From a virus (lineage: Duplodnaviria > Heunggongvirae > Uroviricota > Caudoviricetes), in IMG/VR virus record IMGVR_UViG_3300037852_000247, positions 64,001-93,733 of that record: a stretch of DNA of 29,733 nt. One strand, written 5' to 3'. Of the stretch, positions 1,001 to 29,444 are shown piece after piece. The position numbers and the translations under genes are program-made. The notes under the pieces were generated by a model. That model had not been told where the DNA came from, did not search any database, and saw only the letters and a list, made by a program, of their open reading frames with translations. Each line of letters begins with the position of its first letter. The stretch's first letter is position 1.

Positions 1001-1252
1001 ATGAGTGATTCTATCTTAGTTGAGATTCCAGCTGATGCTCCCGATGGCGTCATGACCTATTACGGAGATAATAGAAAATACTATGGCGTTAAATTTCCGG
1101 ATGGTCGCGTCATCTTCGCCGATGCCAGACTCGAACAGAGTTTAACATTCACACCCCTGGAAATTGCAAAGCTTAAAGAACTTTGTCGAACAATTTATCC
1201 CGATTTGGTGGTCCCAAATGAGTGGGTAGCGAAAATCCACGCAACCAAGTGA
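1001..1252 (+). CDS. Hypothetical protein (83 aa), lower GC than flanks
   Basis: ATG two bases after the upstream TGA; normal globular composition. Confidence 0.7.
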   Translation: MSDSILVEIPADAPDGVMTYYGDNRKYYGVKFPDGRVIFADARLEQSLTFTPLEIAKLKELCRTIYPDLVVPNEWVAKIHATK

Positions 1253-1632
1253 CAAGCGCGAAATCGCGATGACCTCAAAAAGTCTGAAGTACACCGCAAC
1301 GCGGACGGACATCGTCAACGATTTCTATGATGAGATTCAGCGGCTCTTTGAGAAATACCGCTACCAACGCGAAGCAGTGTGCGCCTTGGATGACATCGAA
1401 AGCCTGGCCATATGGTGGGCGAACACGCCAGCCGTATGGTGGGAGAACGCGCCAGCCGTGGTGCGGCCAAAAGATCCAGGCGCGACTCCCGAGATGATCA
1501 AGGCTGGCGTCCGCGCCTATTGCCGGGCCGACGATCACCGTCCTCGCACTTGCGACGAGGATATCGTGGCCGAGATTTACGCCGCGATGCGCGTTGCCGC
1601 CGTGGACAACTAGGTGACCAGCGCGAAATCGC
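1249..1632 (+). repeat. 19-nt direct repeat pair (1249-1267 and 1614-1632)
   Basis: gtgacaagcgcgaaatcgc vs gtgaccagcgcgaaatcgc, 18/19 identical; flanks the 1269-1613 gene. Confidence 0.9.
1269..1613 (+). CDS. Hypothetical phage protein (114 aa)
   Basis: ORF in the coupled operon; C-terminal TPEMIKAG..AY...EDIVAEIYAAM segment resembles small phage proteins. Confidence 0.7.
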   Translation: MTSKSLKYTATRTDIVNDFYDEIQRLFEKYRYQREAVCALDDIESLAIWWANTPAVWWENAPAVVRPKDPGATPEMIKAGVRAYCRADDHRPRTCDEDIVAEIYAAMRVAAVDN

Positions 1633-1886
1633 TTACAGGAATGCTGGGCATCACAGCATACAAAATACCAGAAGTCGATAATTCCTTACCAAAGAGGAAC
1701 CCTATGCCGATAGGTTGCCCATTTCTCGATGCCAACACTCCCGAAAGGGCGCGCGAGGTGCTTCGCGAGGGCATGGCTGACTGGCATGAGGGTGAGGCTC
1801 AGTGGAAAGAGTTTATCGACAAGCTATTAGCCTCATTGCCGCCGACGGTATCACACGAGCCGCCGCCGCATGCTGACTCCATTTAA
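1614..1886 (+). CDS. Hypothetical protein (90 aa)
   Basis: GTG immediately after the upstream TAG. Confidence 0.6.
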   Translation: MTSAKSLTGMLGITAYKIPEVDNSLPKRNPMPIGCPFLDANTPERAREVLREGMADWHEGEAQWKEFIDKLLASLPPTVSHEPPPHADSI

Positions 1887-2034
1887 CATCGGGCAGATAG
1901 TCTGCATCGGGTGGTTCTTGATGGCAACCGCAGCGGCTGTTATCTGGCCACGCTTTCTTCCGCCGAGCACATGGGTCACCGTAGGATTCACTGTACCCTA
2001 CTTCGCTCTGACCATTGGCAAGCTTTTATCGTAG
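1870..2034 (+). CDS. Small two-TM membrane protein (54 aa; not in the ORF track)
   Basis: Manual translation MLTPFNIGQIVCIGWFLMATAAAVIWPRFLPPSTWVTVGFTVPYFALTIGKLLS; fills the gap between genes. Confidence 0.55.
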   Translation: MLTPFNIGQIVCIGWFLMATAAAVIWPRFLPPSTWVTVGFTVPYFALTIGKLLS

Positions 2035-2046
2035 ACCGCGCCGAAT

Positions 2047-2850
2047 ATGCTTTCGTTGCCCGACGTCACCCTGATCGCCATCGACGGCGTCGCGCTCGAC
2101 CTGACCCGGCTTGCGCTCGAAGAATGCGTCCGGCGCGTCAATTTCGCCGAAGTGATGCTTTTCACCGACCAGCAGGATTTCTCGGCGCGAGAGCTCGATC
2201 GAGTTTGGCCTTTCGGCCAACCGCCAGGCGCGCCGCGCCAGCATTTGGTTCGGACGCCGCCTTTGTGCGGCTGGGAGGCCGTGAACCGAGTCTGGTGGTA
2301 TGAGGTGCCCGAGCATGTCCACACCAGTCATTTCCTCACGGTCCAATGGGATTCGTGGGTCTTGAACGCGGCCGCCTGGGATCCCGACTGGCTGAAATAC
2401 GACTACATCGGCGCACCGTGGCCGTGGCACCGAATCTATCGCGTCGGCAATGGCGGGTTCTCATTGCGCTCCCGGCGCTTGCACGAGCATCTCGCGCACC
2501 AGCGGCTTCGCTACCCGACGCACCACCCCGAGGACGATACGCTTTGCCGAATCTACCGGCCAATGCTCGAAGCTGAGGGCTTTCGCTGGGCGCCGGAATC
2601 GATCGCGCAGCGGTTCAGCTTCGAGCGGGGCGAATGCTTGCAATATTGCGCGGGCGGCGCGATCGGAACATTGCCTTTCGGGTTTCATGGCGCTTTCAAC
2701 TTCTGTCGCGTCTTGAACCTGGAAGCTCTAAAGCAACGCCTTGGCGCCGCCAATGATTACGTCAAAGGCAAAGCCGATTGGCAGGAGATGCTACGGCTAT
2801 GCGGAGCCACGTATTTGCCGGGTCGGCCACGATGCCGCGCCACACTGTGA
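2047..2850 (+). CDS. DUF5672-family protein (putative glycosyltransferase-like)
   Basis: Signature HFLTVQWDSWV...YDYIGAPW...VGNGGFSLRS...PEDD...FSFE...PFGFHG. Confidence 0.85.
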   Translation: MLSLPDVTLIAIDGVALDLTRLALEECVRRVNFAEVMLFTDQQDFSARELDRVWPFGQPPGAPRQHLVRTPPLCGWEAVNRVWWYEVPEHVHTSHFLTVQWDSWVLNAAAWDPDWLKYDYIGAPWPWHRIYRVGNGGFSLRSRRLHEHLAHQRLRYPTHHPEDDTLCRIYRPMLEAEGFRWAPESIAQRFSFERGECLQYCAGGAIGTLPFGFHGAFNFCRVLNLEALKQRLGAANDYVKGKADWQEMLRLCGATYLPGRPRCRATL

Positions 2851-3044
2851 CGTTCTTCTCGATCGGCGCGCGCGTGTACCTCGATGGTGCAGCTCTCCAT
2901 GGGGGTTGCAATGGGACACTTATCGCCATTGGACGGAAATTCCTCCAGGTCCGGCTCGACAGCGGTCGCATCGTGCGCCGCGTCTGGCCGTCATGGATCA
3001 CTCGTGCACTGAATGAAATTCTGGCAACGGAGCTAACCGTATGA
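2832..3044 (+). CDS. Small beta-rich hypothetical protein (possibly SH3/KOW-like)
   Basis: MPRHTVTFFSIGARVYLDG...GTLIAIGRKFLQVRLDSG; stop overlaps the next ATG (ATGA). Confidence 0.55.
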   Translation: MPRHTVTFFSIGARVYLDGAALHGGCNGTLIAIGRKFLQVRLDSGRIVRRVWPSWITRALNEILATELTV

Positions 3045-3280
3045 GCGAAGCGCAGCGAATGACCTATGGCGAGAGGGCCGTAGGCCTGACGTTCAATCCG
3101 TCCGGAGACCCGAAGGTCAACGAGATCAAAAGCCTTTTCGCGCAGATCATCAATCTGTGCAATGAGCTGCGCCGCCTCGGCCCCCCCGGGGAAAAAACGA
3201 GGCTTTTGGAAGTCGCCATAACCGAGGCGCAGACCGCGCAGATGTGGGCCGTCAAGGCTATCACCTGGATGGGCCCATGA
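3041..3280 (+). CDS. Helical-hairpin protein resembling the Acb2/Tad1-related family (candidate cyclic-nucleotide sponge)
   Basis: GERAVGLTFNPSG...NEIK..FAQII...RLLEVAITEAQTAQMWAVKAITW; recalled family pattern R-x3-A-x-T-x2-[QE]-x-A-x-MW-A-x-KA. Confidence 0.55.
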   Translation: MSEAQRMTYGERAVGLTFNPSGDPKVNEIKSLFAQIINLCNELRRLGPPGEKTRLLEVAITEAQTAQMWAVKAITWMGP

Positions 3281-4293
3281 CGATGATGCACCCATACTTC
3301 AAGCTGCCGCGCGCCGATGCCCTCGTGCACGCGTGGTCGGTACCGCAGGTGTGCGCCCTCTACAATTGGCCGACCGGGCTGCCCGGCCGCGGCAAGATAG
3401 GCATCGTCGAGCTCGGCGGTGGCTGGGTGCACAAGGATATGCTCGCGTTCTTCTCGCGCGTCCATCAGACCCCGCCCAAGATCACCGACGTCAGCGTCGA
3501 CGGGACGCAAAACTCGCCAGGACTCTCCGATGCCGACGTCGAGGTCGCGCTCGACATCCAGGTCGCCGGGGCCGGCTATCATATCGCCACCGGCCAGCCG
3601 GCCGACATCACCGTGCTGTGGGCTCAGGACATCGCCAGCGCCGTCCTCAAGGGCGCAGAACTAGGCATCGACGCGATTTCAATCAGTTGGGGAGCCCGTG
3701 AGGCAATATGGGGCCATGCCGGGGCGATCGCGATGGATCAGGCGGCGGCATTCGCTACGGGCGGGGGCACCGTCGTGCTCGCCGCATCGGGCGACAACAA
3801 TTCGGGCGACGGCAGCCCCGGGGCCAACGTCGATCTGCCGGCCGGCTGCCCGCATGTCATCGGCTGCGGCGGGACCCGCCTCACCCGGGCGGCAGAGACC
3901 GTCTGGAACGACGGTCCGAGCGAGGGCACGGGCGGCGGCTTCTCGATGTTCTTCCTGGTGCCGACCTGGCAGATCGGCGCGCCGAATGGGCCCGGGCGCA
4001 TGGTGCCAGATGTCGCCGCCAACGCGGACCCCAACACCGGCTATCACATCGTCAGCGGCGGCCGAGACATCGTCGTTGGGGGCACGAGCGCCGATGCGCC
4101 GCTTATCGGTGGCCTCATTGCCGCGTGCGGCACAAAATTGGGATTCATCACCCCGAAGCTGTGGGCCAACCCGGCAGTCTTCCGCGACATCACCATAGGG
4201 AACAACGGCCAGTTCCGGGCTGGCGTCGGTCCCGATCCGTGCACCGGGCTCGGATCGCCGCACGCGGCGCGGATCGCGGCGCTGCTCGCATGA
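3277..4293 (+). CDS. Peptidase S53 (sedolisin/kumamolisin-like), catalytic domain only
   Basis: ELGGG; catalytic Glu/Asp in EVALD; SISWG; oxyanion Asp in AASGD; nucleophile in GGTS; Ca-site DITIGNN and DPCTGLGSP; ATG overlaps the upstream TGA. Confidence 0.92.
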   Translation: MTMMHPYFKLPRADALVHAWSVPQVCALYNWPTGLPGRGKIGIVELGGGWVHKDMLAFFSRVHQTPPKITDVSVDGTQNSPGLSDADVEVALDIQVAGAGYHIATGQPADITVLWAQDIASAVLKGAELGIDAISISWGAREAIWGHAGAIAMDQAAAFATGGGTVVLAASGDNNSGDGSPGANVDLPAGCPHVIGCGGTRLTRAAETVWNDGPSEGTGGGFSMFFLVPTWQIGAPNGPGRMVPDVAANADPNTGYHIVSGGRDIVVGGTSADAPLIGGLIAACGTKLGFITPKLWANPAVFRDITIGNNGQFRAGVGPDPCTGLGSPHAARIAALLA

Positions 4294-4670
4294 AACAGCG
4301 TTTCGAAGCGCAGGAGTACGTGCTCGGTACCGTGCTATACGACCGAGGGCCGCCTATCTGGCGATACCGAAAAGCTCTGCGGGCAGAAGACGGCGAGGTT
4401 CGCCACCTTCTCGAAATGCCCGGCAATCCGGGCAGGGAAATCACGGCCAAGGACGATGAAATCACGTCGATCCAGGGACGGCGATTTTTCTCGTGGGGAA
4501 ACCTAGTTTATCACATACATGATTCCTTCGTGAAGCCGCGGCTGTTCTGTTCGGTCGACGATCACCTCTCAGATTGCAGCGCCGTGGCGACGTGCCTCGC
4601 CGAATTCCTTGAGGCGGGCGGCGAAGCATGGTCGCGCGAGTTCCACGCCCTGTCGCTCACTCACCCATGA
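4290..4670 (+). CDS. Hypothetical protein (126 aa; C-terminal part of track ORF 3708-4670)
   Basis: ATGA overlap with the S53 gene; MKQRFEAQEYVLGTV... Confidence 0.7.
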   Translation: MKQRFEAQEYVLGTVLYDRGPPIWRYRKALRAEDGEVRHLLEMPGNPGREITAKDDEITSIQGRRFFSWGNLVYHIHDSFVKPRLFCSVDDHLSDCSAVATCLAEFLEAGGEAWSREFHALSLTHP

Positions 4671-4780
4671 CCAAATACACGGTCGAGGCGCGCGCCGACC
4701 CGGCTAGCCAAACTCTTGACGTAACGGCTTGAGTTGTAGAAGAGAGTTTCGCGTACTAGAGGCCATTGCGGAGAACAAAG

Positions 4781-5107
4781 GTGCTTAAAGCAGCCGGAAT
4801 CTGCGTCGGAGCAATCATTGTCATCCTGGCATTAACTTGGATTGCTCAGGGCAACAACTTCTTCCTATACCGTGTGTTCGGCATTCAATACGCCAACACC
4901 GCGCGCGAGATTTTCGAGCAATCCTATTCATACAACCGCAGCATGGCAGGCGACCTTGTCGACCTCAGGCGGCAGTATGAAAGCACGGACGATCCGAATA
5001 AGCGCGCCGCCATCGAAACGGCCGCGCGCGCAAAAATAGCCGGCTACGACCTAACGCAACTACACGATCCGGATCTTGCCGCTTGGGCGCGAGGGCTGGG
5101 TCGATGA
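4781..5107 (+). CDS. Single-pass membrane protein
   Basis: GTG after GGAG SD; N-terminal TM AAGICVGAIIVILALTWIA; then helical ..REIFEQSYSYNRSM.. Confidence 0.75.
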   Translation: MLKAAGICVGAIIVILALTWIAQGNNFFLYRVFGIQYANTAREIFEQSYSYNRSMAGDLVDLRRQYESTDDPNKRAAIETAARAKIAGYDLTQLHDPDLAAWARGLGR

Positions 5108-5718
5108 AGCATCCGTGGGGGATTGCTGGAGTGGCGCTGATCTGTTCGCCGCTTCTCATGGGTTCTTCGTCCAGTGGGTCGGGGTGCTCATCCCAGCCCA
5201 CAACGCAGGACGAGATACGCGACGAGCAGGAGACGATCACCTCGGAGATCGTCCGTCAGACTGGCATGCCTGGCGTCAAAAACGCCCGGGAGAAGAAAAC
5301 CCTGAAGTGGATCTATGAGCTGCGTGATCGGGCGGACCTAGTCACCTATACCTATAACTATGTGCCGATGACGGGGGAAATGCGGCCGCATTGCATCAGC
5401 CTCGGCTACCCCATCCCCGGCGGCGTCCAGTATTCAGCTAACGAATCCGAGCAAACCTATTACATCAATAACAAAGGCAACAGTGGGTACGCTTACGGGC
5501 ACGATCGGCTTCCTCAGGCCGAACCCAACGGCCTGTATATGCCCCAAGACATCAAAGCGACCTGGGTTCTCTGCCAGAACCCGCGCAACCCGAAAGATAT
5601 CCAGCCGATCTATTCCGAGCCTGATTTGGTGACGTTCCCTTGGCGCATCAGCGACGAGCCATTCCCTGGCGAGCCCGGATACAAAGGGTTCAAGGACACG
5701 AAGGATAAATCACCGTGA
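5104..5718 (+). CDS. Putative lipoprotein/exported protein
   Basis: ATGA overlap; hydrophobic leader GIAGVALICSPLLMG followed by SGSGC; body TGMPGVKN..YELRD..TYTY..LPQAEPNGLY. Confidence 0.7.
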   Translation: MKHPWGIAGVALICSPLLMGSSSSGSGCSSQPTTQDEIRDEQETITSEIVRQTGMPGVKNAREKKTLKWIYELRDRADLVTYTYNYVPMTGEMRPHCISLGYPIPGGVQYSANESEQTYYINNKGNSGYAYGHDRLPQAEPNGLYMPQDIKATWVLCQNPRNPKDIQPIYSEPDLVTFPWRISDEPFPGEPGYKGFKDTKDKSP

Positions 5719-6083
5719 CCAAATACACGGTCGAGGCCGGATCCGGCTGGCGCGCCACGCTCGACGGCAAGCAGGTGCTCTACGCGCAGGAGGCCGACGA
5801 CGTCGAAGGCTATGTGCTAGCCCTGCTGATCGACGCCGAGGGCAAACCCATCTTCGATCGCGCGCGCGAGGAATGGGCCATCGTCCGACGCGAAGGGAAG
5901 GTCCAGGTTCAGAAAAGCACTGTGACGCCGGAACAGCGCGCCTTGATTGCGGCGGACGACAACGCATTCCGGGTCGAGCTGGCACGCGCGGACGAGCTCA
6001 GCATCGATTACGCCGATACTGCCAGATACCCGGGTTGGATTTCGCTCGAGCAACTCGCCGAGGCGCTGAGGATCAAAACTTGA
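5715..6083 (+). CDS. Hypothetical protein (122 aa)
   Basis: GTGA overlap; ORF in operon. Confidence 0.7.
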   Translation: MTKYTVEAGSGWRATLDGKQVLYAQEADDVEGYVLALLIDAEGKPIFDRAREEWAIVRREGKVQVQKSTVTPEQRALIAADDNAFRVELARADELSIDYADTARYPGWISLEQLAEALRIKT

Positions 6084-6211
6084 TCTGCAAGCATTGCGCT
6101 ACGCTCGGCCACGGTCTGATCTCGGTTCTCGCGACGGCGATCGCGACGCGGGTGACCGCGCGCTTTCTTGCGCGCTGCCAGTTCTGCAATTGGCGGGGCC
6201 AGAAGGGCTGA
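6080..6211 (+). CDS. Small Zn-ribbon-like protein (CKHC...CQFC, 43 aa)
   Basis: TTG overlaps the upstream TGA; two CxxC motifs; stop overlaps the next ATG. Confidence 0.45.
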   Translation: MICKHCATLGHGLISVLATAIATRVTARFLARCQFCNWRGQKG

Positions 6212-6291
6212 TGGATACTGCCAAAATATTATATTGGTCATTCTGGATTGGTGTTGCGGTGGGCTTTATCGTAGGGAAGATATCGCCGTGA
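6211..6291 (+). CDS. 26-aa single-TM peptide
   Basis: MDTAKILYWSFWIGVAVGFIVGKISP; coupled at both ends (TGATG, GTGA). Confidence 0.45.
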   Translation: MDTAKILYWSFWIGVAVGFIVGKISP

Positions 6292-7106
6292 GCGATCGGC
6301 AACCCACGCTCAGCGCCTTTATCGTCACCTATAACCGGCCGGATATCCTGACTGCGTGCGTCAAAGCCGCCGTCTTCGCCGATGAACTCATCGTTGTCGA
6401 CAAGGCCAATACGGTGGTCAATATGGCGGCAGCCATGCAAGGCGGCGCTCACAGGATCGCCAACGCGCCCTGGTCGCCGACCGTTGAGCAGACCCGGACT
6501 TACGCCGCGGCATTGTGCGCCGGCGACTGGATCCTCGCGCTCGACGATGACGAGATCCTGAGCCCTGCGTGCGGCGAGGCGTTTCGCGCCGCCATCGCGG
6601 GCGACCAGGCCGATGTGTGGACGGTCCCAATGCGCCACTATGTCCTCGGCCGGCACGACGAGCGGGCCGGCTATTGGCCGGAGTTTCGGCCGATCCTCTT
6701 TCGCCGCGGCAGCGTCACGTTCGGCTCGACCGTTCACCGCGGTGTCAATGTTCAGCCGGGCGCACGTCAGAAGTGTTTCGAGACTGGCGGCCCGGTATTC
6801 ATCCAGCACCTCTCGCACGAAAACATCTCGACATGGATCGAGAAAACCAACCGCTACACCGATCAGAAGGACCGCATCGGCACGCGACCCCACGGCTCGT
6901 TGTGCGATTGGGCGATCAATGCCTTAGTGGTGCGCTGCGCGCGCGCGCGTGCATACACCAGCGACCCAGGCGGTGATTATCTCGAAGCGGTCGCCGTTAT
7001 GCGCGGGCTCTATGACATCGTCGACGGCTTCAAGCGCTGGGAGGAGGACCAGCCCGACGGCGCTGAAGCGTTCCGTAAGATCTGCGAGGAGGTCATGGCG
7101 CGATGA
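6288..7106 (+). CDS. Glycosyltransferase family 2 (GT-A; resembles WaaE/LgtF-like enzymes)
   Basis: LSAFIVTYN, DELIVVD, DWILALDDDE (DxD), RPILFRRG, IEKTNRYT; GTG start overlaps the upstream TGA. Confidence 0.88.
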   Translation: MSDRQPTLSAFIVTYNRPDILTACVKAAVFADELIVVDKANTVVNMAAAMQGGAHRIANAPWSPTVEQTRTYAAALCAGDWILALDDDEILSPACGEAFRAAIAGDQADVWTVPMRHYVLGRHDERAGYWPEFRPILFRRGSVTFGSTVHRGVNVQPGARQKCFETGGPVFIQHLSHENISTWIEKTNRYTDQKDRIGTRPHGSLCDWAINALVVRCARARAYTSDPGGDYLEAVAVMRGLYDIVDGFKRWEEDQPDGAEAFRKICEEVMAR

Positions 7107-7297
7107 GCGCGAACTGCCCGGATGGCAGGCCGTGTTTTCTTAACGTCTGCGGCGTCCATTCGCCCAAAATCGGCGGGCCGCCCGGCTGCTTCAGGATCCG
7201 GCTCGACAGTCTGAAAGCGGCCAAAACAGACGGCGGGCAGCCCCGCTATAATGCCGAGACGGATCTGTTCGAGCGCGACGAGGTCATGGCCCGGTGA
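7089..7297 (+). repeat. 18-nt direct repeat pair (7089-7106 and 7280-7297)
   Basis: gaggtcatggcgcgatga vs gaggtcatggcccggtga (16/18); both encode EVMAR-stop. Confidence 0.85.
7103..7297 (+). CDS. Small Cys-containing hypothetical protein (64 aa)
   Basis: ATGA overlap; ends in the same EVMAR as the upstream GT2. Confidence 0.6.
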   Translation: MSANCPDGRPCFLNVCGVHSPKIGGPPGCFRIRLDSLKAAKTDGGQPRYNAETDLFERDEVMAR

Positions 7298-7386
7298 CAT
7301 TCGTCGATTTTCTATGGATCGTCGATTGGTTCACCTTGTGTTTTGGGATTGCGTTTTTATGCGTAACTTCCCTAGATGACTCATGA
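7294..7386 (+). CDS. 30-aa single-TM peptide (not in the ORF track)
   Basis: MTFVDFLWIVDWFTLCFGIAFLCVTSLDDS; GTGA and ATGA overlaps at both ends. Confidence 0.45.
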   Translation: MTFVDFLWIVDWFTLCFGIAFLCVTSLDDS

Positions 7387-8177
7387 TCGCGTGGCCAACG
7401 ATTCACTGCTCCTGGCAACTGCTGCGCGAGGGCTGGATGTGGCTGTTCGGTGGCCCATACCGACCGCCTGTCCAAGACGCGGTCCCCTATGCTTGGCATG
7501 TCGAGGAGCCGAAGGAGCTGATAGCCAAGCTGATGCAGCTTCAACTCGTTGAACAAGCTCGCGCACTCGCCGATTTGCCGGTGCTCGTTCCGGCAAAGAA
7601 ACTTGCAATCGGCGTCGGGCCGCACCCGTTACCCGGTTGGGTCAACGTCGACCTCGCCCCGCATTCGAGCGACGTCGTCCGGATGGATGCGACCGGCCAG
7701 TTTCCCTGGCCCAACGACACGTTCAGCCACGTCTTTTCCGAACACATGATCGAGCACGTCGAGCTCGATGGCGCGCGGAACATGATCCGCGAGTGCTACC
7801 GCGTATTGCGGCCGGGCGGGCGCATCAGGATCGTCACGCCGGACCGCGACTTCCTCACCGCGCTCCTCAAGCAGCCCTTGTCGCAATTACAACGCGACTA
7901 CATCCGTTGGTCGTGCCATCACTTCGCGCCCGAGGAAACGTCCCCCTGCGCTGCTGTCGTGGTCGAATTCTTCCCGCGATTGTGGGGCCATCAGCACATC
8001 TTCGACCGCGGCGAGTTGTGGGCAGAGATGTGCAAGAGCGGCTTCACTGAACCGGTCATGTGCGAGTTGGGCGCGAGCATGGACCCCGAGCTGTGCAATC
8101 TCGAAAACGAGGCCCGCATGCCGCCCGGCTTCCTGCGGCTCGAAAGCATGACCATCGAGGCGGTGAAACCGCAATGA
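7383..8177 (+). CDS. Class I SAM-dependent methyltransferase (Methyltransf_11-like)
   Basis: KLAIGVGPHPLPGWVNVD, DATGQFPWPNDTFSHVFSEHMIEH, YRVLRPGGRIRIVTPD. Confidence 0.88.
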   Translation: MIAWPTIHCSWQLLREGWMWLFGGPYRPPVQDAVPYAWHVEEPKELIAKLMQLQLVEQARALADLPVLVPAKKLAIGVGPHPLPGWVNVDLAPHSSDVVRMDATGQFPWPNDTFSHVFSEHMIEHVELDGARNMIRECYRVLRPGGRIRIVTPDRDFLTALLKQPLSQLQRDYIRWSCHHFAPEETSPCAAVVVEFFPRLWGHQHIFDRGELWAEMCKSGFTEPVMCELGASMDPELCNLENEARMPPGFLRLESMTIEAVKPQ

Positions 8178-8470
8178 TCAACGCCTTCGAAATTCTTGGA
8201 GCTCTGCAAGAGGCGCGCATTGTGATTAATCTAGCGCGCCTGGATGAGGCTAGTAATGCTGATTACGATGGTGCCATTGAGCGCGTGGATCGCGCTCTAG
8301 CCGCCCTGGAAAAGTCGATGATGACAGTCGACAAGATGGACGCGCGCACGACCACCATTGCGGAATGTGCGGCTATCGTCCGCGAGCACGGGACTGGGTA
8401 CGCCGACCGCACCGAATTTCTAGCCAAGGAAATCGAGAGCTTGGGCCCATGCACGACACCGCGGCCCTGA
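8174..8470 (+). CDS. Hypothetical helical protein (98 aa)
   Basis: ATGA overlap; lies between two methyltransferases. Confidence 0.6.
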   Translation: MINAFEILGALQEARIVINLARLDEASNADYDGAIERVDRALAALEKSMMTVDKMDARTTTIAECAAIVREHGTGYADRTEFLAKEIESLGPCTTPRP

Positions 8471-9042
8471 CGGGCAACGCCTTCTTCCGCTGCTACGGCG
8501 ATCCGCTCTGCGATCCGGGAAGCATACATTGCGTACTCATACTCGACGTCGGCAGCCATGACGTGAACGGCACATTACGCCCCTATAAGCCGAAAAATGC
8601 AGCTTATCTGGGCGTCGACCAGGTCGCCGGTCCCGGTGTGGACCAGGTCCTCGACGACCCGCATAAGCTGCCGTTTCCCGATGCCTCGTTCGATCTGATC
8701 GTCTCGACCTCGTGCCTCGAGCACGACCCGATGTTCTGGCGGACCTTTGCCGAGATGGCGCGCGTCGTGGTCCCCGGCGGGTTCGTCTACATCAGCGCGC
8801 CGGCGAACGGGCCCTATCACGGCCACCCCGGCGATTGCTGGCGCTTCTACGCCGACGCGCCCAAGGCGCTCGCCGACTGGGCCACGTACTGCGGCCACAC
8901 GCTCGAGCTCGTCGAGGCCTTCATGATGAAGCCGATCAGCGACGTGTGGGTCGATTGCGTCGCGGTGTTCGGCAAACCGCCGGTACCGGAACGCATGCGC
9001 ATTGGCGATATTGCGCGATTTCCTTTGGAGACGATCCCATGA
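8449..9042 (+). CDS. Class I SAM-dependent methyltransferase
   Basis: ILDVGSHDVNG, YLGVD..AGPGVD, FDLIVSTSCLEH, MARVVVPGG, YHGHPGDCWRF. Confidence 0.9.
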   Translation: MHDTAALTGNAFFRCYGDPLCDPGSIHCVLILDVGSHDVNGTLRPYKPKNAAYLGVDQVAGPGVDQVLDDPHKLPFPDASFDLIVSTSCLEHDPMFWRTFAEMARVVVPGGFVYISAPANGPYHGHPGDCWRFYADAPKALADWATYCGHTLELVEAFMMKPISDVWVDCVAVFGKPPVPERMRIGDIARFPLETIP

Positions 9043-9398
9043 CCTTGAGCTACGTCTACCTCATCTCGCCGCCTTCAACCTCCGCATTCGCCGTCGGCGC
9101 GTCCGGAAAGGTATATACGCCAAATGCCGCCGGTGTGATCACCGGCGTCGCAGCGAGCGATGCCATGCTGATGACCGGCATCGGCGATGACGGGAGACCG
9201 CTGCTGGCGACCGGCGCCACCGCCGACCGGCCAGACCCAAGCCCCAGCCCGCCTACCGGCCCTGGGCTCAACAACACCTCCCCGCCGCTGGCGCTGGGGT
9301 TGCCATTCTATGACACTTCGCTTTCCAAGACGGTATTCTGGGTTGGCACGATCCGCAGCTTAACCGGCTGGGTAGACCAGGCCGGCAATCCCGCGTAA
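9039..9398 (+). CDS. Possible minor virion protein with a tail-fibre-type C-terminal module
   Basis: GATADRP...GLPFYDTSLSKTVFW...GWVDQAG resembles the recalled GTTAQRP...YFDTTLGKPIWW...WVDATG module. Confidence 0.5.
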   Translation: MTLSYVYLISPPSTSAFAVGASGKVYTPNAAGVITGVAASDAMLMTGIGDDGRPLLATGATADRPDPSPSPPTGPGLNNTSPPLALGLPFYDTSLSKTVFWVGTIRSLTGWVDQAGNPA

Positions 9399-9424
9399 AG
9401 CAAAACCCTTTTCGGAGACCAACC

Positions 9425-9631
9425 ATGACGGCAATCAAGACGACTGACCGCGGCCCCACCTATTCCGTGCCCGATGCGCACGGCAACACTGTGTCGCTCA
9501 AACAGGGCCAGCCGAGCTTTGTCGGCGGGGCACGGACGGTCACCATTGGCGGGCTTACCCTAACCCAGCAGGCCGTGATCGATTTGCTGCCGGCGCTGAC
9601 GGCATTTGCTGCCAGCGGCGTGGTGAGCTGA
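9425..9631 (+). CDS. Hypothetical protein (68 aa)
   Basis: GGAG SD upstream; high GC3. Confidence 0.7.
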   Translation: MTAIKTTDRGPTYSVPDAHGNTVSLKQGQPSFVGGARTVTIGGLTLTQQAVIDLLPALTAFAASGVVS

Positions 9632-9643
9632 CAGGTGTGCTGC

Positions 9644-9991
9644 CTAGCCTACTGGGTGCCCCGGCAACTCAGCCGTGCTTACAATGATTTTTGCCGTGCA
9701 AAAAGGACAAAAGTGAATTGGCGTCGACTCAATTATTGAGAACCCATCCCGACAGATTGCGCGGAAAATGTTTACCGTATCATTCGCTTGCGGATCACCA
9801 AAACGTGGCCCAAGCTTTATGAAACCACCCGACAACGCTTGGCTCATCTTTCGGCAACAGTAACTGATACCGCCGCGCTCCCTTTCGTAATAGCCACATG
9901 AAGTACGATAGGGTCCGTCAGCGGATCTGCTATATCCTATGTTAAACTGAGCATAATTCCGATATATCTCATTATCGTTATTCTCGGTCAT
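9644..9991 (-). CDS. Cys-rich hypothetical protein (115 aa), low GC
   Basis: ATG at 9991 overlaps the upstream TGA; CC and CPFC motifs. Confidence 0.6.
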   Translation of the reverse strand: MTENNDNEIYRNYAQFNIGYSRSADGPYRTSCGYYERERGGISYCCRKMSQALSGGFIKLGPRFGDPQANDTVNIFRAICRDGFSIIESTPIHFCPFCTAKIIVSTAELPGHPVG

Positions 9992-10230
9992 GGCAGCGGT
10001 GCCGGCCCACGGCTTTCGATCCAGCGCTGCACGCACAATAGATTGCAAAAGTCCTTCGGGTCTTTGAATAGCTCCCGCATCTCTGTGTCGATCGGTCTCA
10101 CGTCCTCGACGTAAGCCGCATAGCTCATCAGCGTGCCACCTCCCTGATGCCAGTTGATCCGAAGGTGCACGTGCTCGCGGGGGATCTCGGCCCCGCACGC
10201 ATCGCACGTCGTTGTTTCTTTCCTTGCCAT
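9988..10230 (-). CDS. Zn-finger-like protein (CDAC...DFCNLLC), paralog A
   Basis: GGAG SD before ATG 10230; CxxC...Cx3C pattern. Confidence 0.7.
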   Translation of the reverse strand: MARKETTTCDACGAEIPREHVHLRINWHQGGGTLMSYAAYVEDVRPIDTEMRELFKDPKDFCNLLCVQRWIESRGPAPLP

Positions 10231-10231
10231 T

Positions 10232-10501: not shown

Positions 10502-10537
10502 CTGATTACCTCTTCTCATTTCAGCGAGGCCAGCATT

Positions 10538-13066: not shown

Positions 13067-13091
13067 CCCGCTCCCAATCCCAAACAACCCG

Positions 13092-13115
13092 ACCCGCCGC
13101 CGGCGGGTTTTTTAT
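13092..13115 (+). terminator. Intrinsic terminator-like hairpin between scaffold and capsid genes
   Basis: acccgcc-gcc-ggcgggt plus tttttatt; 29/32 identical to the 11258-11289 copy. Confidence 0.7.
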
Positions 13116-20728: not shown

Positions 20729-21603
20729 TGGAAGACCGCGACGACACTGGACCGAGGCAAACCTCGCGCGGCTGGACGCCAGATCCGGATCCGACGCTCC
20801 TCACCACGGAGCAGTCCGGGCGACTGCGCGAGGAGATGTATCGCGCGGTTGGGAATTCTCGCGAGCTTACTGAGGCCCATTTGGAGGGACTGAGCACATC
20901 AGTCTCTGATTTCCACGCCAGGATCCCTAACGACATAAAGGACGCTTTAGCGCATCTCCGCGAACTGTTCGTAGAGAAACTCGCGGGCCTGCGAGACGAA
21001 GCCAATCAGAAGTTTTCAGGCATCGCGTTGCAGTTTTCCGAACGAGACGTGCGGACGACTCAGGCCTCCGAATTAAACAGGACCATGGTCGAACAAGCCA
21101 CCGTGGCGAGTAAGACCGCGATTGACGCGGCATTCCTGGCAAATCAAAAATCGGCGGACGCTAACGCCGAATATGTGGATAAATCCATTACCAAAAGCGA
21201 GGCGGCTACCAAAGAGGCGATCGTCGGCATGCAGGCGCTTTTGACGGGCTCGATCAACGACATTCGCGGACAGATCGCGGGCCTCACGAGCCGCCTGGAC
21301 CGAGGCGAGGGAGCTGACAAAGGATTGAGAGACAAAGATTTCGACCGCCGCGGTAATGTCGGGATGATCGTCGGAATGGCAAGCCTCGGCGCGACCCTAG
21401 TCGTGATGATCGTAGGCGCGGTGATGTTCGTCGCCGTACATGCTGCTGCCCCTGCCCCTGCCCCTGCCCCTGCCCCTGCCCCTGCCCCTGCCCCTGCCCC
21501 TGCCCCTGCCCCTGCCTATGGTTACAATGCGCCGCCAGCTCAATGGCCGACAGCCGTCCCGACCGCTCCCGGCGGAGCGCAAGCCACGCTCCCGGCGAAG
21601 TAA
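20728..21603 (+). CDS. Coiled-coil membrane protein with a C-terminal TM and (AP)n tail
   Basis: PDPDPTLLTTEQ, heptad-like helices, TM IVGMASLGATLVVMIVGAVMFVAV, then AP repeats. Confidence 0.8.
   Translation: MEDRDDTGPRQTSRGWTPDPDPTLLTTEQSGRLREEMYRAVGNSRELTEAHLEGLSTSVSDFHARIPNDIKDALAHLRELFVEKLAGLRDEANQKFSGIALQFSERDVRTTQASELNRTMVEQATVASKTAIDAAFLANQKSADANAEYVDKSITKSEAATKEAIVGMQALLTGSINDIRGQIAGLTSRLDRGEGADKGLRDKDFDRRGNVGMIVGMASLGATLVVMIVGAVMFVAVHAAAPAPAPAPAPAPAPAPAPAPAPAYGYNAPPAQWPTAVPTAPGGAQATLPAK
21448..21516 (+). repeat. Perfect hexanucleotide tandem repeat (GCCCCT)x11 + GCC
   Basis: Counted directly; in frame, encodes (Ala-Pro)11. Confidence 0.97.
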
Positions 21604-22756: not shown

Positions 22757-22780
22757 TGGGTCGTCCCTAATATCATAGCA

Positions 22781-22872
22781 ATGGTCTCGGGCTCGCGCTC
22801 TCAGTCATAGCGTTCAAAGTAGTGGCAGCAGAACCCATCACGTAATATCCGCGCGATGGTCTCGGGCTCGCG
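22781..22872. repeat. Perfect 17-nt direct repeat (22781-22797 and 22856-22872)
   Basis: atggtctcgggctcgcg twice; encodes REPETI on the minus strand. Confidence 0.95.
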
Positions 22873-23031
22873 GTCGATCAGCTTCAATAGAATGAGCCCC
22901 AACGCCGGCGGCGACCGGCGACCCTGCTCGTATTGCTGGAGCGTCCGCTCGGGCAGCTGGTAGCGCGCGGCGAACGCCGCCCGGGTGAGACCAAGGCGGC
23001 GACGCAATGCGAGAATGTCGAGACCGTTCAT
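22801..23031 (-). CDS. XRE-family HTH (HigA/antitoxin-like) regulator
   Basis: LRRRLGLTRAAFAARYQLPERTLQQYEQGRRSP...LLKLI.REPE. Confidence 0.85.
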   Translation of the reverse strand: MNGLDILALRRRLGLTRAAFAARYQLPERTLQQYEQGRRSPPALGLILLKLIDREPETIARILRDGFCCHYFERYD

Positions 23032-23035: not shown

Positions 23036-23275
23036 ATCGCTCAGCCCTCCCCTGTCGGCACGAATGCCGCGCAGGCGTTGATTTTATCATCCGCTGTGTA
23101 AGCGTGGCCCACCTCGACATATTCATAGCCCGCATGCGGACAACCAGTGACGCGCCGCCAATAGTTGGCGCAGACACGCCTCGCTCCGTGAACGGTCTTA
23201 GCATAGCCGATCAACTCGCCGTCATAGCGGCGCGTAAGCACGGGAATTTTTGCGGCCATCGCTCAGCCCTCCCCT
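23036..23275. repeat. Perfect 18-nt direct repeat (23036-23053 and 23258-23275)
   Basis: atcgctcagccctcccct twice; on the minus strand it contains a GGGGAGG SD; flanks the 23041-23259 gene. Confidence 0.95.
23041..23259 (-). CDS. Hypothetical protein (72 aa)
   Basis: SD in the repeat; ORF bounded by the repeats. Confidence 0.7.
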   Translation of the reverse strand: MAAKIPVLTRRYDGELIGYAKTVHGARRVCANYWRRVTGCPHAGYEYVEVGHAYTADDKINACAAFVPTGEG

Positions 23276-23507: not shown

Positions 23508-23564
23508 CTTCGTCTCCGCCCCTGATTCCCCGAGGCGCGGGCTGCCGATAGGGGGTCTCTCTCG

Positions 23565-23750
23565 TTACGACCAAGACTCGATGAAATAGCGCTCGCCTCT
23601 CTGCGCGCACTCTTGATCGGTTAGTATGGTCCCTGGCGGGTCAACCACGTATCCGCGGCGATCGCGGCTCAATTGGCCGCCGATCTTTATGGCCCAGTGT
23701 ACCGCTGCCCGATAGCCGTCATCGCTGTGATGGAAAATTTGCGTGGTCAT
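23565..23750 (-). CDS. Hypothetical protein (61 aa)
   Basis: Preceded by the start-associated repeat. Confidence 0.75.
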   Translation of the reverse strand: MTTQIFHHSDDGYRAAVHWAIKIGGQLSRDRRGYVVDPPGTILTDQECAQRGERYFIESWS

Positions 23751-23811
23751 AGGGGTCTCTCCGCCCCTGAACCCCGAGGCGCGGGCCGGTCAGAGACCGG
23801 AATAACTGTGA

Positions 23812-24015
23812 TCAGGCGCAATCGGCGTAGGAATAGGCGTAGTGAGCGCCATCCGCCCTATGCCGTAGACCGTTCAATGCGGCTCTGCCGATCGCGGAGT
23901 CGTTATCCGCGCCCATTGGCGTCTCGCCTGCTTCGTAAGCGGCGAAATATGCCGCCTCGCAACCCCTGCCATCGCTCAGCAGGGCTGCGTAAGTCTGTTG
24001 GTGCTCGTGGTTCAT
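23812..24015 (-). CDS. Hypothetical protein (67 aa)
   Basis: First gene after the strong leftward promoter; preceded by the repeat. Confidence 0.75.
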   Translation of the reverse strand: MNHEHQQTYAALLSDGRGCEAAYFAAYEAGETPMGADNDSAIGRAALNGLRHRADGAHYAYSYADCA

Positions 24016-24069
24016 TTTATCTCTCCGCCCCTGATCCCCGAGGCGCGGGCTGTCTTAATCGACACTCCG

Positions 24070-24824: not shown

Positions 24825-24830
24825 TCAGGT

Positions 24831-26141: not shown

Positions 26142-26149
26142 GTTCTGTC

Positions 26150-27127: not shown

Positions 27128-27388
27128 ATGGAAGATGATCAGGTCGCGGCTAAGCCGCAGGTCAAGGTTGAGCCGCAGGTCGCGGCTAAGCCTCAGGTCA
27201 AAGCCGAGCCGACGGTCAAAGCCGAGCCGCAGGTCAAGGCTGCGCCGCTGGACGCGGTGGTGGACCGCTGGTTCGGCGACCACTTCCCTGGGTCTGTGGT
27301 GGCCCGCGACGTCGACGCGTACAACTACGTGCACGGTGCCGTCGAGGAACTGAAGAAGCGGCTCAAGGCGGCGCCGACCCCGGATTGA
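27128..27388 (+). CDS. Small protein with (K/E)PQV repeats
   Basis: GGAG SD; 36-nt and 18-nt tandem units at about 27140-27240. Confidence 0.7.
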   Translation: MEDDQVAAKPQVKVEPQVAAKPQVKAEPTVKAEPQVKAAPLDAVVDRWFGDHFPGSVVARDVDAYNYVHGAVEELKKRLKAAPTPD

Positions 27389-27443: not shown

Positions 27444-27471
27444 AAGGCGCTTCGGCGCCTTTTTCTTTTTT
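27444..27471 (+). terminator. Intrinsic terminator-like hairpin just upstream of the tail tube gene
   Basis: aaggcgc-ttcg-gcgcctt (cUUCGg loop) followed by a T-rich run. Confidence 0.75.
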
Positions 27472-28287
27472 ATGGAGGCTACCATCCAACTTTCTTTCGG
27501 CCCAGGCGCCATGTGGGGAGTCCGCACGGACACCACAGGCAGCGGCATAGGCCCCCGCCAATTCGGTCTGCTCCAGGATGTGGATCTAACGGTCAGCTAC
27601 ACCTCCAAGGAGCTGTATGGCCAGTCTCAGTTCCCCGCTGCGCTCGCCCGTGGTCAGGGCAAGGTCAAGGGTAAGGCGAAGATGGCCCGCATTAACGTGC
27701 GGCTTTACTCCGATGTGTTCTTCGGCCTGACAGCCTCGGTCGGCAATTCGACGACAGCGCAATACGAGGCTGCGACGATCCCGGCTACTACACCCTTTAC
27801 GGCAACAGTGGCTAATGCGGCCACCTTCATTTCCGCCAGCGCGACGTTACCACTTGGTGGCGATCTCGGTGTCAACTACGCATCCAACGGCGACATGTTC
27901 AACTATGTCACCACACCTACCAACCCCGGCGAGTACACGGTCAATCCTGCCACCGGGGTGTATACCTTTGCCGCGGTGGACGCCGGACTACCGGTTCAGA
28001 TCAGCTACAATTACCGCCAAGCTGCCACGGGCTTACAGGTCTCCGTGACCAATCAGCCGCAGGGCACGACGCCGTTCTGGGCCGCGACGATCTTCCAAAA
28101 GATCAGTCCCGGCGCACCCGGTACGGCGGGGCAGAGTCTGCCGTGGATGGTTTATCTGCCGGCATGCCACGCTAATTCGCTCAGCATCCCCACTGCCCAG
28201 GACGCTTGGACGATGAACGCCTTCGACTTCGACGCGTTCGCCGATCCCACCGGGTTGGTCATGCAGTACAACGCGGTGAAGCAGTGA
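27472..28287 (+). CDS. Major tail (tube) protein
   Basis: QLSFGPG, FGLLQDVDL, KELYGQSQFP..LARG, G.YTF insertion, AFDFDAFAD; followed by the G/GT chaperones. Confidence 0.88.
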   Translation: MEATIQLSFGPGAMWGVRTDTTGSGIGPRQFGLLQDVDLTVSYTSKELYGQSQFPAALARGQGKVKGKAKMARINVRLYSDVFFGLTASVGNSTTAQYEAATIPATTPFTATVANAATFISASATLPLGGDLGVNYASNGDMFNYVTTPTNPGEYTVNPATGVYTFAAVDAGLPVQISYNYRQAATGLQVSVTNQPQGTTPFWAATIFQKISPGAPGTAGQSLPWMVYLPACHANSLSIPTAQDAWTMNAFDFDAFADPTGLVMQYNAVKQ

Positions 28288-28664
28288 TGATCCCGGGAAT
28301 CCTGATCTTCATGGGCGGCAAGGACTGGACGGTCCCGCCGCTGACACTGAGTAAGCTGCGACGACTCCGACCCAAGATCCGCCAGATGACTGATGCCGGC
28401 ATCGAAGCTAACATTGGTCTGACGGACGAACAGATAGATACGATAGCCGAAATCGTTCAATCCGCGCTCGCGCGCAACTACCCTGATTTAGCTATTGAAG
28501 ATGTGCTCGACCTAATTGACATGGGCAACGTACAGCCCGTGCTACAAGCCGTTCTAGCGGGTTCTGGACTTAGGCGCTCCACGCCGGGGGAAGCGAAGGC
28601 GGTGACGACTGGGGCGCCCTATACGGACTCCTCGCCACCGCCTGCGGATACAGCTACCCAGTGA
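28287..28664 (+). CDS. Tail assembly chaperone (gpG equivalent)
   Basis: Position; GGKDWTVPPLTL..L, ALARNYPDL...DLIDMGN; ends near a PGE slippery site. Confidence 0.85.
   Translation: MIPGILIFMGGKDWTVPPLTLSKLRRLRPKIRQMTDAGIEANIGLTDEQIDTIAEIVQSALARNYPDLAIEDVLDLIDMGNVQPVLQAVLAGSGLRRSTPGEAKAVTTGAPYTDSSPPPADTATQ
28586..28592 (+). other. Programmed -1 ribosomal frameshift site G-GGG-GAA
   Basis: The -1 frame is open from 28589 to 28918 and reads GSEGGDDWGALYGLLATACGYSYPVIDEMTL. Confidence 0.85.
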
Positions 28665-28918
28665 TCGACGAGATGACGCTCTTCGACGTAGAGGAGCTGT
28701 GTCACTACTGGCGTCGGCACCCGCCGGTCCACCTGCTGGTTGCAGGCTTCGTGGGCTATCGGGCTGATGATGCACCGTCGCCGACGGACGCAGAGTACTG
28801 GCCGGTGTCGACGCCGCTGCCACCGGAGTTGCTAAGCGTGCCCGGGGTGGCTTCCGGCGTGCTGCCGCCGAACATGCCGCAGCCCGTCCTCGACTTTGGG
28901 GAGCTAATGACGCGATGA
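28589..28918 (+). CDS. gpT portion of the G-T fusion chaperone
   Basis: DWGALYGLLATACG...IDEMTLFDVEELCHYWRRHPP; reached by -1 frameshift. Confidence 0.8.
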   Translation, partial: GSEGGDDWGALYGLLATACGYSYPVIDEMTLFDVEELCHYWRRHPPVHLLVAGFVGYRADDAPSPTDAEYWPVSTPLPPELLSVPGVASGVLPPNMPQPVLDFGELMTR

Positions 28919-29444
28919 AGCCCTGCGCCGGATGCTCACTCTGCTGCAAAGTCCTCGCGGTGCCCGAGATCGACAAGCCGGCGTGCGTCTGGTGCAGGAA
29001 GCTCGAACGCACTGGCGAACATACTGCGCGATGCGGCATTCACCCAGAGCGGCCAGATGCGTGCCGCACGTTTCAGTGCCTATGGACGCTGGATCCGAAA
29101 ATGCAGCCTGGGCTGAAGCCCGATCGCTGCGGCGTCGTCTTCGCTACCGACGAGTATCTGGATGGTCCGTTCGTCGCTGACGAGCCGTGGCTTCACGCGC
29201 ACGTGGATCCCGATCGGCCGTTGGCGTGGCAGTCCGGGCTGCCGTGGCTCGCCATCTCCGCATTCCTCGGACGAGGCGGCTCGGTCGCCGTCCACGTCGG
29301 TAGTTGGTGGCGGACGTTCCACCGAGGCGAGATCCGGAGCGGGTACGGCGAAGTGGACTATGGCTTCGCGGTGGGGATGTTCCGCCGCGCGACGCTCGAC
29401 GGCATGCCTGCACCCACCCTCGACTTCGCGGAGCTGATGCGTCG
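28873..29444 (+). repeat. Degenerate 42-nt direct repeat (28873-28914 and 29403-29444)
   Basis: 30/42 identical; MPQPVLDFGELMTR vs MPAPTLDFAELMRR. Confidence 0.8.

Follow-up and report, generated by a model that had tools for sequence, protein, structure and literature searches.

Most of the direct-repeat pairs in the window, the whole 29,733-nt stretch of DNA analysed here, are probably recombination scars, left where foreign DNA entered tight gene junctions of a temperate soil phage. The phage is uncultured, has a GC content of about 61%, and comes from a 93.7-kb record that is 87% complete. We count three verified events and three or four probable ones within 30 kb. At the verified sites, relatives without the extra gene carry one copy of the junction, which argues that the repeats are recombination scars of gene gain.

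All eight repeat sets listed in an earlier note on this DNA were found again, with the match counts claimed there (for sets 1 to 8, in order along the window: 18/19, 22/22, 16/18, 29/32, 20/20 for 15824/16021, 17/17, 18/18 and 30/42), and ungapped extension lengthened them to 23–42 nt. Exact direct repeats of at least 15 nt lying within 2.5 kb of each other numbered 18, a count that takes in two tandem arrays, compared with 0.18 ± 0.48 in 100 dinucleotide shuffles; the density is thus above the shuffled background. At separations above 2.5 kb, the window scan returned no direct repeat longer than 14 nt. Non-tandem local repeat clusters occurred at 3.0 per 10 kb in the window; across 1.36 Mb of related loci the figure was 0.64 per 10 kb (median 0). 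Repeat copies were concentrated at gene boundaries: 17 of the 20 lay no more than 12 nt from a gene start or stop, where 3.2 were expected, and none of 20,000 random placements reached 17.

The repeats are unrelated to one another, as had been reported, and each matches its own neighbour and no other junction. The terminal peptides said to be shared by neighbouring proteins are real (EVMAR plus stop, MPxPxLDFxELMxR and MTKYTVEA). Elsewhere the bracketed genes and their neighbours are dissimilar; all-against-all BLASTP confined the similarity to the termini, excluding a tandem duplication of paralogues. GC content was 0.51–0.59 in inserts and islands and 0.63 in the core, with sets 3 (0.64) and 8 (0.66) as exceptions. 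Megablast of window positions 1–24000 against GenBank phages gave no match.

The claim that the repeats bracket accessory DNA held for sets 2, 3 and 8, where the enclosed DNA is absent in relatives, and failed for sets 4 and 6. For the same three sets the predicted empty-site alleles exist as single-copy relatives; at sets 2 and 3, the related loci L110 and L107 (83% and 75% nucleotide identity to the window) carry one repeat copy at the same site. The features at these junctions are:

4290–4670, plus strand: 126-aa gene after the S8 peptidase gene, with an ATGA overlap at each end
4665–4732, plus strand: set 2 copy 1, a remnant of 21 codons from the 5' end of the MTKYTVEA gene
4733–5712, plus strand: set 2 inserted block, a non-coding stretch and gene 5104–5718 (phrog_24725)
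5713–6083, plus strand: set 2 copy 2 with the complete MTKYTVEA gene (5715–6083)
7084–7106, plus strand: set 3 copy 1, the last six codons of a GT2 glycosyltransferase gene (EEVMAR and stop) with an ATGA overlap
7103–7297, plus strand: set 3 insert, a 64-aa ORF with its ATG from copy 1 and its DEVMAR-stop end from copy 2
7275–7311, plus strand: set 3 copy 2 with downstream context, 84% identical over 37 nt to the L110 junction
28873–28918, plus strand: set 8 copy 1, the C-terminus NMPQPVLDFGELMTR and stop of the 85-aa gene 28661–28918, with an ATGA overlap
28915–29457, plus strand: inserted CxxC-rich 180-aa gene, whose C-terminal GMPAPTLDFAELMRRGES and stop form set 8 copy 2 (29403–29444)

At set 2 (4665/5713), L110 and L107 read ...CTCGCATGACCAAATACACGGTCGA... 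with one repeat copy, so that the stop of the S8 peptidase gene overlaps the start of the MTKYTVEA gene directly. Window positions 4294–5715 are extra relative to both loci, and both set 2 copies align to one site in the relatives: the first 22 nt of copy 1 equal copy 2, and 56 nt of copy 1 align to the single L110 site. The block 4733–5712 is absent in L107, L108, L109 and L110, and the GTGA overlap in copy 2 supplies the stop of inserted gene 5104–5718. Gene 4290–4670 is also absent in L107 and L110 and has no long duplication at its own boundaries. Viral contigs yielded no match to a degenerate MTKYTVEA pattern or to query 3708–4670, which is largely out of frame (the real gene is 4290–4670).

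In the window as in L110 and L107, the GT2 gene at set 3 (7084/7275) ends in EVMAR and a stop with an ATGA overlap. Both window copies align to the one L110 junction; copy 1 is identical to it, and copy 2 with its downstream sequence matches the L110 junction and downstream sequence at 27 of 32 positions. No homologue of the 64-aa ORF was found among about 190 related loci, and a viral-contig scan with query 6168–7106 gave no match. The idea that this insert derives from the end of a diverged GT2 gene was rejected, the match being only marginal (PDGRPCFLNVC versus PDGAEAFRKIC, E = 0.06).

At set 8 (28873/29403), 28 relatives have a single LDFAELRRRxxxx-stop end of the homologue of the 85-aa gene, followed immediately by a tape-measure-like gene and lacking the CxxC gene, and this single-copy state spans several sub-lineages. 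Among the roughly 190 loci only L111, at 68% DNA identity, has a homologue of the CxxC gene, which is known from the window, L111 and a few short contigs only; set 8 itself is also present, independently, in L111. The tail is missing from distant CxxC homologues that lie in another phage context. Because the LDFxELxRR tail is kept in CxxC homologues down to 45% identity, it may be a selected protein motif rather than a passive scar.

In the three cases the duplicated junction consists of the upstream gene's last codons and stop, a Shine–Dalgarno (SD) sequence and the overlapping downstream start. With the left copy the upstream gene remains complete, and with the right copy the downstream gene retains its ribosome site and start; the repeats themselves come from the ends of the resident genes on either side. 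The reading frame of the insert at sets 3 and 8 opens at the ATG of the left-copy ATGA and runs through the terminal codons and stop of the right copy; this borrowing of start and stop explains why C-terminal peptides are shared and start/stop overlaps preserved.

Repeat pairs of 87–100% identity are absent from relatives 75–83% identical to the window, and a 71%-identical pair is common to the window and L111. Set against the relatives' identity, this repeat divergence makes the proposed difference in age between events plausible. The description of the insertions as systematic was too strong: at least six other indels relative to L107 and L110 carry no duplication beyond background, which shows that an indel need not involve one.

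Four further families of repeats accompany small genes:

1242–1267, plus strand: set 1 copy 1, 26 nt, the stop of gene 1001–1252 and the spacer before ATG 1269
1269–1613, plus strand: 114-aa gene bracketed by set 1, inside the low-GC island 1000–2046
1607–1632, plus strand: set 1 copy 2, 88% identical, covering the stop of gene 1269–1613
15632–15655, plus strand: set 5 copy 1, intergenic, ending at ATG 15655
15816–15843, plus strand: set 5 copy 2, overlapping the stop of the 56-aa membrane-protein gene 15655–15825
16013–16040, plus strand: set 5 copy 3, coding, the C-terminus of gene 15853–16056
23036–23275, minus strand: set 7, the 18/18 repeat AGGGGAGGGCTGAGCGAT with an SD, flanking the 72-aa gene 23041–23259
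23513–24053, minus strand: a ninth family (23513/23756/24020), three copies of about 34 nt with an SD and an upstream motif

Sets 1 (1242/1607), 5 (15632/15816/16013) and 7 (23036/23258) lie in lineage-specific islands and are not polarisable. Their genes had no homologue among the loci fetched, and these sets therefore have no informative relatives. The low-GC island 1000–2046 is absent in L107, and the stop of gene 23041–23259 lies inside the downstream copy of set 7. The 23513 family was absent from the earlier list; its copies precede three unrelated small minus-strand genes. Sequences of set 5 and the 23513 family folded no better than shuffles (z from −1 to +0.6), and structured RNA elements are unsupported for both. 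Outside the window, at genome positions 10.2–13.1 kb, a 14-copy motif precedes gene starts.

Two sets do not fit this pattern:

11255–11296, plus strand: set 4 copy 1, a terminator-like hairpin and T6, in frame within the protease-scaffold ORF 10538–13066
13088–13129, plus strand: set 4 copy 2, an intergenic terminator opening the conserved leader of the major capsid gene (ATG 13169)
22768–22875, minus strand: set 6, a 33-nt repeat present twice, at a spacing of 75 nt, in the 3' end region of the XRE/MqsA-like gene 22801–23031

Between the two copies of set 4 (11255/13088) lies the scaffold half of the protease-scaffold gene. Insertion as a cassette is excluded here, the scaffold domain being present in every relative examined and the ORF continuous in 61 of 67. 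The internal hairpin occupies the same linker position in L107 and L108, and is conserved in L107 although its flanks are unalignable; the pre-capsid leader is conserved in all relatives. In L113, the closest capsid relative (96% amino acid identity), one terminator copy is covered, and the locus diverges to the left of window position 11798. With set 4, a conserved terminator-like hairpin has been copied into the linker of the protease-scaffold ORF, and the set differs in kind from the others. Set 6 (22768/22843) encloses only 42 nt and reflects a 75-nt event inside the 3' end of the XRE-type gene; its copy past the stop is an in-frame 'ghost' C-terminus (EREPETIAMILGTTH and stop) whose length is that seen in homologues.

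Repeat-flanked insertions of this type were described in mycobacteriophages by Pope et al. 2011 (PLoS One 6:e16329, PMC3029335), who compared gene 68 of Island3 with Brujita and genes 43–46 of LRRHood with Cali. They reported an extra gene, absent in a close relative, that shares 18 C-terminal amino acids (about 50 bp) with the upstream gene, and a 1.35-kb block between 29-bp direct repeats that are single-copy in relatives and lie at the extreme 3' end of a gene; they invoked recombination at short sequences near gene boundaries and left its direction open (PMC3029335). Sets 3 and 8 resemble the case of C-terminal sharing and set 2 the 29-bp-repeat block. Repeat-flanked DNA absent from relatives, single-copy relatives and a shared terminal peptide were found at all three, the set 2 peptide MTKYTVEA being an N-terminal remnant. 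The principle is therefore already published, and the present case extends its range and establishes nothing new. It differs in phage lineage and host (an uncultured soil phage of about 61% GC), in the occurrence of several events within 30 kb, including two- and three-copy families, and in making explicit that an insert can borrow both start codon and stop from the duplicated junction.

Morons, as summarised in PMC3029335 from Juhala et al. 2000 and Hendrix et al. 2000, carry their own promoter and terminator. Like morons, the inserts described here lie between genes that are adjacent in relatives and often have deviant base composition. In contrast to morons, the inserts of sets 3 and 8 are chained by ATGA/GTGA overlaps, and consensus scans detected no sigma-70-like promoter or terminator in or beside them; at set 2, the 370-nt non-coding stretch 4733–5103 could hold a promoter missed by the simple scan. 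In the PeSL (promoter-early stem-loop) cassettes of T4-type phages, ORFans lie between short gene-boundary repeats that mediate gain, loss and exchange, circles can form between neighbouring repeats, and one shared promoter and stem-loop motif is used genome-wide (Arbiol et al. 2010, PMC2839356; Comeau et al. 2014, PMC4122927). Similar to these are the 23513 family, with its three copies, and the 14-copy motif, the only cases here of a shared motif; in contrast to PeSL, each pair in the window is unique to its own junction and copied from resident genes, and consensus scans found no promoter-like consensus in the repeat pairs. Lambdoid boundary 'linker' sequences (Susskind & Botstein 1978; Clark et al. 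2001), as cited in PMC3029335, likewise involve recombination at short homologies at gene boundaries, but are there shared between genomes for allele exchange, with no tandem duplicate within one genome. Integron cassettes are marked by attC imperfect palindromes and an IntI integrase acting at attI; the repeats here are not palindromic recombination sites, and each copies local coding sequence. Of the hallmarks of transposable elements, neither a fixed duplication nor terminal inverted repeats were found, nor a transposase in a scan of the set 2 and set 8 genes.

We propose that, in the first event, replicating genome copies would have recombined with a donor illegitimately or through very short homology. 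As the genes overlap (ATGA/GTGA), only junction-duplicating products would leave both neighbours functional, and selection would filter for them. Once formed, the repeats would allow homologous deletion, exchange or re-insertion, and repeated insertion at one junction may produce three-copy families. The earlier note had instead favoured Campbell-type integration, in which circles holding a gene and the local junction recombine by short homology through a phage Red-like annealing protein, with excision possible. We consider this unlikely. An H-X-H topology is the product of single-crossover circle integration, and the 18–56 nt repeats are within the length range used by annealing recombinases. 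For the PeSL cassettes of T4-type phages, the formation of mini-circles between the flanking repeats has been demonstrated. However, the RecT, ERF, YqaJ and Rad52 families (PF03837, PF04404, PF09588 and PF04098) gave no match in the 93.7-kb record, 87% complete, which leaves a Red-like mechanism unsupported; a circle must already hold the recipient's junction, which would explain transfer to, or loss from, an orthologous site and not a first insertion; and the inserts of sets 3 and 8 have neither a start nor a stop of their own.

The direction of change cannot be proved, since a precise deletion between the repeats in relatives would give the same pattern. If the two-copy state were ancestral, the repeats would mark deletion-prone cassettes that relatives lost by homologous deletion, regenerating exactly their single-copy junction, and for Island3/Brujita and LRRHood/Cali it was a history that Pope et al. 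were unable to rule out. We regard such a history as quite unlikely, given that set 8 is single-copy across the 28 relatives in several sub-lineages and the CxxC gene is rare, that set 2 is empty in both L107 and L110, and that the repeats derive from the ends of resident genes. It is improbable that the repeats are instead independently selected elements, such as translation-coupling signals, RNA hairpins, regulator sites or C-terminal docking peptides. The conserved set 4 hairpin and pre-capsid leader, the LDFxELxRR peptide conserved in both protein families, and the position of the 23513 family and 14-copy motif before gene starts would suit that explanation; the dead 21-codon remnant at set 2, the untranslated ghost at set 6, the unremarkable folds of set 5 and the 23513 family, the match of each repeat to its own neighbour only and relatives that manage with one copy argue against it. 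Scarcely credible is an assembly artefact or a transposon target-site duplication, for all that the contig is a metagenome assembly and direct repeats flank inserts as they do with transposons. A contig from another sample, 99.99% identical over window positions 1–7532, shows the same structure at sets 1–3, which together with the independent set 8 in L111 rules out an artefact. A transposon is ruled out by duplication lengths that vary from 18 to 56 nt or more and by terminal inverted repeats not above background at the insert ends; insert genes 5104–5718 and 28915–29457 (sets 2 and 8) gave no PHROGs or Pfam transposase match, and the remaining inserts are single ORFs of 56–126 aa.

Beyond the scars of gene gain that we favour, a bolder reading is possible, to which we assign a small chance: compact phage genomes could gain genes by junction duplication itself, as a generative process independent of any recombinase. 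DNA landing in frame at an overlapping stop/start might, at similarly low probability, be expressed at once through a borrowed ATG, C-terminal codons and stop, and coupling signal; and repeated hits might, just as tentatively, build arrays in which small genes unrelated to each other alternate with a single repeated junction motif (three copies at 15.6–16.0 kb and at 23.5–24.0 kb, 14 elsewhere in the genome). If true, ORFan birth, 'cassette arrays' and PeSL-like motifs would be one process.

The window offers unusually clean and polarisable examples of a tailed phage adding genes within an essential, translationally coupled operon while leaving the neighbours unbroken, and its sequence suggests how an insert without signals of its own may become an expressed ORF. 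For annotation, terminal peptides common to neighbouring phage genes can be insertion scars. The window is also a compact natural data set for short-homology and illegitimate recombination and for the origin of ORFans in phages.

The window is the final 29.7 kb of a linear 93.7-kb IMG/VR virus record that is 87% complete. Its genes follow one another in this order:

Glycosyltransferase/methyltransferase block (GT9-like, DUF5672, S8-peptidase-like, GT2, methyltransferases), first
10538-13066, protease-scaffold fusion gene, second
13169-14668, major capsid gene, after the protease-scaffold gene
14786-15334, free-standing HNH endonuclease gene, directly 3' of the capsid gene
Numerous small ORFs, after the HNH endonuclease gene
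Head-tail connector and tail genes, last

Capsid proteins ~80% identical to that of the window are encoded on >170 soil metagenome or viral contigs; megablast with window 1-24000 gave no nucleotide match among GenBank phages. Two related contigs, L110 and L107, have 83% and 75% nucleotide identity to the window. Four glycosyltransferase-like genes lie among the virion genes (GT9/TPR, DUF5672, GT2 and a GT4-like gene at 19634-20728), as do an S8-peptidase-like gene and two or three methyltransferase genes (window 1-9400). Gene order varies between relatives, the L104 contig group having its DUF5672, GT2 and methyltransferase genes after the tail-completion genes. The HNH endonuclease gene heads a 3-kb island not present in any relative. 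The closest capsid relative, L113 (Ga0210402_10040759; 96% amino-acid identity), matches the window collinearly, with 86% nucleotide identity, only rightwards from window 11798; to the left it is unrelated and lacks the protease, which indicates a mosaic breakpoint within the scaffold region.

The coordinates and match counts of all eight repeat sets in the earlier note were reproduced (set 1, 1242/1607; set 2, 4665/5713; set 3, 7084/7275; set 4, 11255/13088; set 5, 15632/15816/16013; set 6, 22768/22843; set 7, 23036/23258; set 8, 28873/29403), and ungapped extension lengthened the repeats to 23-42 nt. Repeat density was above the shuffled background, with 18 exact local direct repeats of ≥15 nt, a count that includes two tandem arrays, against 0.18 in dinucleotide shuffles. 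The non-tandem exact repeats are the sets already listed plus one additional family, at 23513/23756/24020. At separations of >2.5 kb, no repeat longer than 14 nt occurs within the window. Density is ~5 times that of related loci (1.36 Mb), and 17 of the 20 repeat copies are at gene starts or stops (within 12 nt), where ~3 would be expected. Because window 1-7532 recurs with 99.99% identity on a contig from another sample, the repeat structures are not assembly artefacts. A membrane-like protein (20728-21603) has an (AP)12 run close to its C-terminus, encoded by a (CTGCCC)n array at 21441-21524; the (A/E)(K/E)PQVK repeats at the N-terminus of the 27128-27388 product come from an array of 18-nt period at 27139-27264.

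Empty sites, that is, relatives without the insert that carry a single junction copy, were found for sets 2, 3 and 8. In L110 and L107, the S8-peptidase stop and the MTKYTVEA gene start overlap directly (ATGA), and window 4294-5715 is extra DNA relative to both. In L110 a single site aligns with each copy of set 2, over 56 nt for copy 1; copy 1 heads a dead remnant of 21 codons, and the stop of the last gene in the insert is the TGA of GTGA in copy 2. The upstream gene is 4290-4670, a longer ORF at 3708 having been rejected as out of frame. The GT2 gene end (...ICEEVMAR, stop) and its ATGA overlap are common to the window, L110 and L107, and the small gene 3' of GT2 differs in each. Copy 2 of set 3, together with its downstream sequence, matches the one L110 junction and the sequence downstream of that at 27 of 32 positions. 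Copy 1 supplies the ATG of the 64-aa insert and copy 2 its DEVMAR-stop end; the insert itself contributes no start or stop.

At set 8, an 85-aa homologue in 28 relatives ends ...VVLDFAELRRRxxxx-stop and is followed directly by a tape-measure-like gene. The CxxC gene at 28915-29457 is absent from the ~190 related loci save L111, which has both set 8 copies; the unrelated contig L112 encodes a distant 129-aa homologue. A TLDxxELMRR tail is present in CxxC homologues of 45-88% identity, and the gene occupies the same slot in all three sequences whose gene context was looked up: the window, L111 and the contig encoding the homologue P0018. The tail is missing from two distant 129-aa homologues, and in L112, the one contig of the two that was looked up, the gene has another phage context. 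Given both copies in L111 and the tail and slot of the homologues, set 8 is therefore an old, inherited event; its tail peptide may now be a selected motif.

Sets 1, 5 and 7 and the 23513 family are located in islands at 1000-2046, 14.7-17.7 kb and 20.7-25.4 kb. No gene of these islands has a homologue among the ~190 related loci, so that the direction of these sets cannot be polarised. The bracketed genes are unrelated to adjoining genes, those set 5 and 23513-family elements that were folded did no better than shuffles, and insert ends carry no terminal inverted repeats. These features are consistent with an origin by the same process but do not prove it. Outside the window, a small-gene array at 10212-13075 of the whole record holds ~14 copies of ACCGCCAGCGGGGCGCGGCGATGCCTAG at 170-600 nt spacing.

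Set 6 has the topology of the other sets but no inserted gene: the 3' end of an XRE/MqsA-like gene carries two 33-nt copies at a spacing of 75 nt. XRE homologues end ...REPETIARIL plus 2-6 residues, four being longer, and resemble the untranslated 'ghost' copy after the stop. In P0025, an XRE homologue of 82 aa, the same C-terminal segment is independently duplicated (REPEMIARIL...REPGTIARIL), which suggests that recombination recurs at this end of the gene.

Set 4, by contrast with its earlier reading as a bracket around accessory DNA, encloses a scaffold domain that follows the protease in 67/67 relatives showing both parts; protease and scaffold form one continuous ORF in 61 of them, and none of the 67 has the internal hairpin and T-run. 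Conservation of the internal copy extends to L107 and the related contig L108, the hairpin differing in the loop alone; the linker around it is otherwise unalignable. The downstream copy opens a leader conserved 5' of the capsid gene in all relatives, and no other site in the first 20 kb of the window is as strongly terminator-like as these two copies. Set 4 is a conserved element, not an insertion scar. The internal hairpin and T-run (11255-11296; L107:15930-15965) lie in frame within the protease-scaffold ORF, where they encode DPPEAGFLLPA; the distance to the twin before the capsid gene is 1833 nt (611 codons). This twin shares the frame of the capsid ORF (TTG 13115), so that recombination between the two would join protease to capsid in frame. 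The capsid leader (window 13088-13168) comprises, in ~45 relatives, a GC hairpin, T5-6, (A/G)TTGCCCCCC, GGGAGG and ATG, and pairing of its C-run with the Shine-Dalgarno sequence is conceivable. Another strong hairpin and T-run of this kind (27444-27471) lies just 5' of the putative major tail gene at 27472.

The earlier note's finding is real, and its interpretation holds in part. Junction duplication does not rise above background at no fewer than six other insertions or deletions relative to L107/L110 (island 1000-2046, gene 4290-4670, 9398-9994, gene 3041-3280, and L110- or L107-specific inserts), and the process is therefore frequent, not systematic. Gene 3041-3280 (79 aa) precedes the S8 peptidase gene, is missing from L110 and shows no junction duplication at its boundaries; its orthologues in L107 and the contig L193 carry the Pfam family Acb2_Tad1_hairpin, an anti-CBASS/Thoeris sponge fold. 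As to the Campbell-type circles and Red-like recombinases named in the note, a circle carrying the local junction cannot account for the first insertion, and no RecT, ERF, YqaJ or Rad52 gene was detected in the 93.7-kb record. We favour, as the first step, illegitimate or micro-homology joining of genome copies with a donor. Selection would retain those products in which the overlapping neighbours stay intact, and the repeats could later serve for homologous exchange or loss.

Morons differ in that they have their own promoter and terminator; consensus scans detected neither in or next to the set 3 and set 8 inserts. PeSL cassettes work similarly but employ one common motif (PMC2839356). The mycobacteriophage insertions of Pope et al. 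2011 bear the same signatures as the window sets: in Island3, gp68 has 18 C-terminal residues (~50 bp) in common with upstream gp67, and Brujita lacks gp68; in LRRHood, genes 43-46 lie between 29-bp repeats, and the repeat is single in Cali (PMC3029335). The window repeats are a further instance of this already published pattern.
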